NCBI GenBank assembly: GCA_029838195.1
Contig: JALGVJ010000040.1
Location: 1-32,428 of the forward strand
DNA from: Promethearchaeota archaeon
Lineage (GTDB): Archaea; Asgardarchaeota; Lokiarchaeia; Sigyniarchaeales; SOKP01
DNA length: 32,428 nucleotides
Direction: 5' to 3'
Of the stretch, positions 5,203-5,734 are shown piece after piece (position 1 is the stretch's first letter; the number at the start of each line of letters is the position of its first letter). The position numbers were made by a program, and so were the translations under genes. The notes beneath the pieces are model-generated. The model saw only the letters and a list, made by a program, of their open reading frames with translations. It did not search any database and was not told the DNA's origin.

Positions 5203-5734
5203 TCACATTTCCTCCTTTATAATATCATCATATTCTCCATTATCAATTCTTTTCTGTATGACGCGAGGATCCTCTCCTTCTACCGTCAGTCCTACGGAGA
5301 GCGCCGTGCCTAGTACTGTTTTAACGGCTTTTTTAAATGTTTTATCCAAAAAGATATCTCGTTTCGCCTTGGCCACGTCAATGACTTGATTTAACGTTAA
5401 ATTTCCAATCTTTTTTTCTGTTATATCACTCGACCCTTTCTCAACCCCCGCCTCTTTTAACAATAAGGAGGCAGTTGAGGGGGTTTCAACAAAGATTTCA
5501 AACTGCTTAGTCTCGGGATCGCATTCGATTCGTACGGGAACTGTCAACCCCTTGAATATCATGGTCTTTTCGTTTACCGCATCCACGACATCCTTGATAT
5601 TAATTCCTGTAGGGCCTACTGCAGGACCTATTGGTGGCCCTCCTGACGCATTAGAGGATGGGCCGAGATGACCAATCTCTCCCTCCCGTCACGAGTGCCT
5701 TAACCACTACTTTTCCTTTACCTCCGGTGCTCAT
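5203..5734 (-). CDS. rpl11: 50S ribosomal protein uL11, split gene: exon 1 5734-5679, exon 2 5650-5203; spliced product 167 aa ([48 protein letters not shown]...)
   Basis: The ORF track gives only the C-terminal 127 aa. The L11 motif [15 protein letters not shown] continues upstream in that frame to 5650. The N-terminal strand [10 protein letters not shown] lies in another frame starting at ATG 5734. Removing 28 nt joins them (56+448=504 nt). Confidence 0.95.
5651..5678 (-). other. Putative 28-nt archaeal BHB/BHL-type mRNA intron in rpl11 (AGAUUGGUCAUCUCGGCCCAUCCUCUAA)
   Basis: 4-bp helix AGGG/CUCU, 3-nt bulge AG^A, opposite loop AA^UG, inner stem GAU-U-GGUC/GGCC-C-AUC, outer exon-exon stem UGACG/CGUCA. 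Cuts at the standard positions restore the reading frame exactly. Confidence 0.8.

Follow-up and report, generated by a model that had tools for sequence, protein, structure and literature searches.

Introns removed by the tRNA splicing endonuclease (EndA) have, within archaeal protein-coding sequence and in the literature that we searched, been reported only for cbf5 of the Crenarchaeota. The intron of the cbf5 pre-mRNA, described from the Desulfurococcales and Sulfolobales, mostly adopts a relaxed motif resembling the bulge-helix-bulge (BHB), is handled by a hetero-oligomeric EndA and has a patchy distribution (PMC2738675). For protein-coding genes of Asgard archaea we found no paper describing introns of the endonuclease type, our coverage of the literature being incomplete and such absence therefore not proven. 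Here we describe a 28-nt insert in rpl11, the gene for ribosomal protein L11, of an Asgard archaeon, which as a putative intron adds to the cbf5-type class of mRNA introns. Like the intron of cbf5 it is short and interrupts a protein-coding gene, draws part of its motif from the exons, has predicted cuts that part the second bulge residue from the third, would be served by a hetero-oligomeric EndA of relaxed specificity, and is patchily distributed among relatives. The features that mark the cbf5 type, namely a position inside conserved coding sequence and absence from some close relatives, are also seen here, as the insert follows codon 18 and is missing from 87 alleles. The two cases differ in host gene (rpl11) and phylum (Asgard), and rpl11 of the relatives has four sites within 35 codons and as many as three introns per gene. 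Moreover, cbf5 splicing has been proven by cDNA and in vitro cleavage, whereas the rpl11 intron is predicted from sequence comparison.

Non-canonical tRNA introns of Asgard archaea and Thermoproteales (PMC11291895; PMC5829648; bioRxiv 10.64898/2026.10.13.758758) are similar to the rpl11 insert in size range, motif family, enzymes and lineages. They differ from it in that the host RNA of the latter is an mRNA, so that excision must be base-exact to keep the frame, and in that the exonic halves of its helices are constrained by codons. In the HAC1 and XBP1 mRNAs cleavage is performed by IRE1 and ligation by RtcB/RTCB or Trl1, and the XBP1 intron measures 26 nt. The likeness is that a protein endonuclease acting at stem-loops removes a tiny intron from a cytoplasmic mRNA, that a tRNA ligase joins the exons and that the reading frame changes; the differences lie in the use of IRE1 with a recognition motif of its own and in the stress-regulated nature of the splicing. 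Ribosomal bypassing in gene 60 of phage T4, in which the RNA stays intact, needs matched take-off and landing codons. What that system has in common with rpl11 is a short stretch of the coding sequence that goes untranslated and includes a hairpin and a stop codon, but the matched codons are lacking in rpl11.

The window, by which we mean the whole stretch of 32,428 nt that was analysed, carries rpl11 on its minus strand. From the ATG at 5734 the gene reads 18 codons ending in VTGG and, after AGA GAU, runs into a TAA; the L11 reading (ASGGPPIGP...) is taken up again at 5649, shifted by one base, and continues to a stop at 5203 (Table 1). The open frame of exon 2 (P0001) matches the Pfam model Ribosomal_L11_N over model positions 10-58 and Ribosomal_L11 over positions 2-69, the latter being the whole C-terminal domain. 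As the first of these matches begins at model position 10, the initial nine positions lie upstream in the other frame. Taking out 5678-5651 fuses AG|U into a Ser codon at the predicted junction GGAGGGAG|UGCGUCAGG and yields a product of 18+1+148 = 167 residues, in which not one residue is gained or lost relative to intron-less relatives. Left in place, the 28 nt bring a TAA into the exon-1 frame and shift the frame, and the unspliced message codes only for a 27-residue peptide. A first-pass annotation of this DNA had proposed the same insert, the same helices and the same in-frame product; on re-reading of the sequence all of its coordinates for insert and helices were correct, and the 167-aa product was reproduced by removal of exactly 28 nt and matches the intron-less relatives. 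That annotation had also named an intact second rpl11, together with transcripts that are never spliced, as a finding contrary to its reading, and no second copy was found: each L11 domain is matched exactly once in the genome, both times at the rpl11 locus, in an assembly of 4.5 Mb in 94 contigs that is 96.6% complete, with 7.9% contamination and 33% G+C.

Table 1. Features of the interrupted rpl11 locus (window coordinates) and further intron sites in rpl11 of relatives.
Feature	Position	Strand	Remarks
rpl11 exon 1	5679..5734	-	ATG + 18 codons + AG of the split Ser codon; aligns with N-termini of intron-less relatives
Putative intron, 28 nt	5651..5678	-	18 other alleles have a homologous insert here
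rpl11 exon 2	5203..5650	-	Third Ser base + 148 codons + stop; Pfam matches
Central 4-bp helix, 5' strand AGGG (exonic Gly codons)	5681..5684	-	Paired in 18/18 alleles; first pair covaries; RNAalifold
Central helix, 3' strand CUCU (intronic)	5653..5656	-	Paired in 18/18 alleles; RNAalifold
Predicted 5' splice-site bulge AG|A	5678..5680	-	Predicted cut 5679/5678; frame restored by cutting 3' of the second bulge base
Predicted 3' splice-site loop AA|UG opposite GG (5686-5685)	5649..5652	-	Predicted cut 5651/5650; relaxed (a loop, no 3-nt bulge) in every allele
Intron hairpin h'	5657..5677	-	GAU/AUC, U-C mismatch, GGUC/GGCC, loop AUCUC; stacks directly on bulge and central helix
Exon-exon outer helix, 5' strand GGC-A-CUC-G-UGACG	5687..5699	-	10 pairs kept in 96% of cells, 18 alleles
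Exon-exon outer helix, 3' strand CGUCA-G-GAG-G-GCC	5636..5648	-	Fold, alignment and RNAalifold
Site after PPI			Introns of 30-36 nt in relatives' rpl11
Site GPAV|GPTG			Introns of 28-30 nt in relatives' rpl11
Site between GPTGIN and IKDV			Introns of 28-29 nt in relatives' rpl11

An intron-less L11 of the same genus, used as query against 135 genomes of the family, had a match in 127, of which 63 had an uninterrupted rpl11, 59 an N-terminus that was truncated or contained stops, and 5 a partial gene at a contig end. Forty of the interrupted loci were fetched for parsing. These genome searches gave 18 distinct alleles, from five genera, with an insert at exactly the 5678-5651 site, and a nineteenth was found through the protein database (93% protein identity, in two further NCBI assemblies, with the same 28-nt insert bearing six substitutions). 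The lengths at this site are 28, 31, 32, 36, 37 and 38 nt, each of the three frame classes being represented, and every insert stops the exon-1 frame. Distinct alleles without an insert here include that of a genome of the same genus (G001). Both the intron-less alleles and the same-site inserts with covarying helices that had been expected among relatives were found once rpl11 was aligned, and the relatives are metagenome-assembled genomes labelled Promethearchaeota, as the Asgard origin thought probable in the first-pass annotation would have it. In the nearest relative the six differences within the intron all fall at positions 6-19, in the hairpin, and leave the 14 boundary positions untouched; exon 1 has a single change in its 56 positions (98% conserved), while third positions of exon 2 differ at 23%. 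NCBI annotation of the intron-bearing relatives calls L11 as a protein of 156-157 aa whose first 8-9 residues are intron-derived, with exon 1 missed and the start wrong. Outside the family, the matches listed from some 190 Asgard genomes included no interrupted rpl11 N-terminus. Four small Asgard genomes (family f6) seemed to have in-frame stops in rpl11, but these proved to be the natural stop codons, not introns, and were set aside.

Covariation was assessed on a MAFFT alignment of the 18 alleles with a pre-specified structure, against 500 shuffles and against a slide of the pairing partner by one column. Paired cells amounted to 87.4%, compared with 81.8% in the shuffles and 59-60% after the slide, and the covariation score was 0.184 as opposed to 0.094 in the shuffles; for neither measure did any of the 500 shuffles reach the observed value. 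The central helix, which joins exonic positions -6 to -3 with intron positions -3 to -6, is paired in every allele (100%), and its first pair is U-A in 9, A-U in 6 and U-G in 3, the exonic partner being the synonymous third position of a Gly codon. Three of the four pairs tested in the h' hairpin show double changes, with exchanges between A-U and U-A after the first pair. Without any input structure, RNAalifold arrived at the same two helices, the 10-bp exon-exon one and the central one. Exon-exon pairs number 10.1 of 12 in intron-bearing and 5.4 of 12 in intron-less alleles, a comparison in which part of the exon conservation may reflect shared ancestry because the intron-bearing alleles are related. 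Among the intron-bearing alleles the paired synonymous positions of the exons are fixed or covary, whereas unpaired third positions (those of the Thr codon and of the Ala codon after the junction) vary freely. In the intron-less congener G001, 8 of the 12 exon-exon pairs still form by hand count, and the junction Ser is encoded by UCC, not AGU, so that its sequence is not accounted for by a mere exact loss of the intron.

The 76-nt region around the insert folds at -35 kcal/mol (z = -3.6), and 1 of 200 shuffles folded equally well. At the core of the outer helix UGACG (5691-5687) pairs with CGUCA (5648-5644). Of the elements of a strict BHB, the 4-bp central helix between the cut sites is present as AGGG/CUCU, and so is the 3-nt bulge at the 5' site with its adjoining intron helix, the first pair of h' forming in 18/18 alleles. 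Ten of these alleles have AG|A as their 5' bulge, seven have AG|U and one has AA|C; the 3' site is AA|U in 16 of the 18. At the 3' site itself, the 3-nt bulge of the strict hBHBh' motif is replaced by a 2x4 internal loop, a departure that the first-pass annotation had rightly flagged. A relaxed 3' site is the rule among relatives at this position, and in most of them the two adjoining pairs are open as well, giving a 4x6 loop (helix 2 is only 22% paired). As judged from this comparison, the motif fits only the relaxed bulge-helix-loop, or HBh', class, and with the 3' site in a loop instead of a 3-nt bulge only an enzyme of broad specificity could use it.

One feature of this allele complicates the picture. 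Exon 1 ends in GGAGGGAG, which offers the intronic CUCU two possible pairing registers, and in the minimum-energy fold of the single sequence it is GGAG (5682-5679), with a 1-nt bulge, that pairs with CUCU, and not AGGG. The shifted register is valued at -35.0 kcal/mol against -30.5 kcal/mol for the splicing-competent one, which is 4.5 kcal/mol weaker and would make up about 0.2% of the ensemble. The shifted register is also possible in the nearest relative, and cutting there would not restore the frame; most relatives carry CCCA, CCCG or CCCU, with which a GGAG-type register cannot form. The helices of the first-pass annotation are consequently borne out as to their placement, AGGG/CUCU being backed by the comparison and by RNAalifold, but not as the minimum-energy fold of this allele. 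We take the comparative register as the probable functional one, and the conflict between registers as a caveat on the efficiency of the predicted splicing.

Relatives have three further rpl11 intron sites in codons 19-35, which brings the total to four within the first 35 codons (Table 1), and three introns in one gene are the maximum (genomes G102 and G145). Introns at GPAV|GPTG display the canonical order of helix, bulge, helix, bulge and helix, with GGACC/GGUCC stacked on GGCU/AGCC and with bulges GUA and CAA; their intron helix is of 6-9 bp and carries compensatory changes. When 56 introns were parsed, the best placement of the central helix (3-4 of 4 pairs, as against 1.1-2.2 at neighbouring placements) was fixed for each site, the exceptions being two alleles of site 4, in which it lies three bases away, and one intron of site 1 that the aligner had mis-split. 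The fixed placements rebuild conserved codons, namely AG|U for Ser, AU|A for Ile, GU|A for Val and A|AC for Asn. This agreement across four sites is an independent, sequence-based test of the predicted EndA cutting rule, and the in-frame junction that EndA geometry was earlier said to predict here holds at the three other rpl11 sites of relatives also.

The machinery presumed from the outset, EndA with RtcB as ligase, is encoded in full, as genes for an EndA alpha, an EndA beta and RtcB (553 bits) are all present. Three matches to the family of the EndA catalytic domain were found in the genome. The C1 protein (202 aa) is EndA alpha-like and has as its best solved relative the catalytic subunit of Aeropyrum pernix (3P1Z_B, 6e-36); the Crenarchaea-specific loop aligns in its KPR (K44, R46), as do the segments with the catalytic residues. 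The C8 protein (199 aa) is a full-length EndA paralogue (beta) in which the histidine position appears changed. The third match is weak (C53:22042-22209, 29.6 bits) and falls in a 109-aa open frame. Lys44 of the Crenarchaea-specific loop is needed to cut both BHB and relaxed bulge-helix-loop substrates, and grafting of the loop broadens a narrow enzyme (PMC3241643); an (alpha-beta)2 EndA with this loop has been described for Asgard archaea (PMC5829648). ARAGORN recognized only 16 tRNA genes in the genome, 8 of them with introns, which suggests that most tRNA genes are too interrupted for recognition and fits the heavily interrupted tRNA genes of Asgard archaea (PMC11291895; bioRxiv 10.64898/2026.10.13.758758).

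We consider it very likely that the 28 nt are an EndA intron of the BHB family, in its relaxed bulge-helix-loop form, in the rpl11 mRNA, and the gene very probably needs RNA splicing. In the mechanism that we propose, Gly and Pro codons of both exons would pair in the transcript to create the long outer helix, exonic AGGG and intronic CUCU would make the 4-bp central helix, and the remainder of the intron would fold into a hairpin. A heterotetrameric EndA would cut two bases beyond the 3' end of either central-helix strand, at the 5' site within the 3-nt bulge AG|A and at the 3' site within the loop AA|UG, and RtcB would ligate the exons as ...GGAGGGAG-UGCGUCAGG... to give the message of the 167-aa L11. 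The anatomy of the gene, its conservation and covariation, the restored frame and the presence of the enzymes are what was observed, and it is from these that we infer cleavage and ligation of the rpl11 transcript and their efficiency. A search of public sequencing runs for the sequence listed no RNA run among the holders.

The four alternatives that we weighed are, even jointly, improbable. The first would have the gene be a pseudogene or recently disrupted, with the insert staying in the message and L11 either dispensable or made in N-terminally truncated form from an internal start, for example GTG 5586. A 127-aa open frame does begin at that GTG, and the public annotation of relatives gives a truncated L11 that starts inside the insert. 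L11 is nevertheless a universal ribosomal protein with a single gene here, and the near-complete conservation of exon 1 towards the nearest relative (98%), together with a site shared by five genera with covarying helices and fixed synonymous positions, is not what decay would be expected to leave. Such a reading, which would further imply a broken rpl11 in 59 of the 127 family genomes, strikes us as very unlikely. No better placed is the idea that the insert is removed from the RNA by machinery other than EndA and RtcB, such as an unknown nuclease. The non-canonical 3' site and the fact that the preferred fold of this allele is not in the BHB register speak in its favour, but self-splicing of the group I or group II kind would need a larger insert, and at four independent sites the cuts implied by the frame lie two bases 3' of the strands of a conserved 4-bp helix, which is the signature of EndA (PMC2738675).

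Less probable again is that the ribosome itself deals with the insert, either through a bypass like that of T4 gene 60 or through programmed frameshifting (+1) ahead of the TAA. The gap does hold a hairpin and a stop codon, GGAGGG stands on both sides of the insert, and a +1 shift at CUC-UAA-U would reach the frame of exon 2. A hop between the GGAGGG repeats would, however, lose four residues (the conserved S-A-S-G), and the codon after GGG is AGA with no stop right after take-off, so that neither the matched take-off and landing, nor the stop after take-off, nor the loss of the gap alone that characterize T4 gene 60-type bypassing are found. A frameshift, for its part, would add 9 residues to the invariant GG-x-A-x-x-GPP loop. 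Inserts of 36 nt are in frame and have an early TAA, and the lengths and contents of the inserts vary among alleles; with three frame classes and in-frame inserts that stop early, no single recoding rule fits them all, and the covariation follows EndA geometry instead. The weakest alternative, that of an assembly or binning artefact or a contaminant contig, draws on the metagenomic origin of the bin, its 7.9% contamination and the failure of Logan contigs of four public DNA runs to reach 5558-5705, and it is extremely improbable: two other NCBI assemblies carry this 28-nt insert, altered at six bases, and so rule out an error of assembly, homologous inserts stand in 17 further assemblies from several studies, and the bin is without any other L11.

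Returning to the preferred reading of an EndA-spliced intron, the suggestion of the first-pass annotation that more such introns may exist genome-wide found support in individual genes, at least pyrG being split likewise, and not in scans of the genome, which were no richer than their controls. In pyrG (C56:72183-73902) a 31-nt insert lies within CTP_synth_N, the model being matched over positions 1-62 and 71-265 in two frames, and 3 of 4 central-helix pairs form at the placement that restores the frame. The genes elp3 (C23:58722-60405) and dnaG (C38:53928-55209) each consist of two open frames, which short inserts (37 nt in dnaG) separate at conserved motifs, with the later Pfam domains falling in the second piece, and are less decisive than pyrG. 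Both pyrG and dnaG deviate from the strict hBHBh' motif. Genome scans for the strict hBHBh' motif gave counts equal to displaced or mis-framed controls, and so did the strict scan combined with a dicodon test of coding potential on both flanks and a scan for a relaxed core motif with structure filters, each compared with its controls. The background of these scans is dominated by ordinary gene junctions, and they consequently give no estimate of the number of mRNA introns. The 28-nt insert of rpl11 occurs once in the whole genome, and its origin as a mobile element was rejected, there being no second copy and the matches to its last 10 bases being at chance level and in unrelated contexts.

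At all four rpl11 sites the exonic halves of the helices are Gly and Pro codons, islands of high G+C in a genome otherwise rich in AT. Such islands may explain why rpl11 might be a hot spot. We regard it as rather unlikely that its 5' coding region has undergone repeated gain and loss of endonuclease-type introns in this Asgard family. Were this so, such introns would be actively inserted wherever Gly and Pro codons provide GC-rich exon helices, the production of L11 might through splicing be tied to the capacity of the tRNA-splicing machinery, and the family, belonging to the closest relatives of eukaryotes, would serve as a prokaryotic model for the dynamics by which introns are gained and lost.

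An essential and universal ribosomal protein gene of an Asgard archaeon very probably relies on EndA-type intron removal, to judge by the comparative evidence, and nearly half of the genomes of the family have one to three rpl11 introns. Gene callers mis-annotate these genes, and pipelines for marker-gene completeness and phylogenomics that use L11 are affected. The natural alleles, with their compensatory changes, constitute a ready mutational series against which the rules for EndA substrates could be tested. Asgard archaea would in this way be a natural system for the entry, persistence and loss of protein-spliced introns in protein-coding genes, with a bearing on hypotheses of how eukaryotic gene structure arose.
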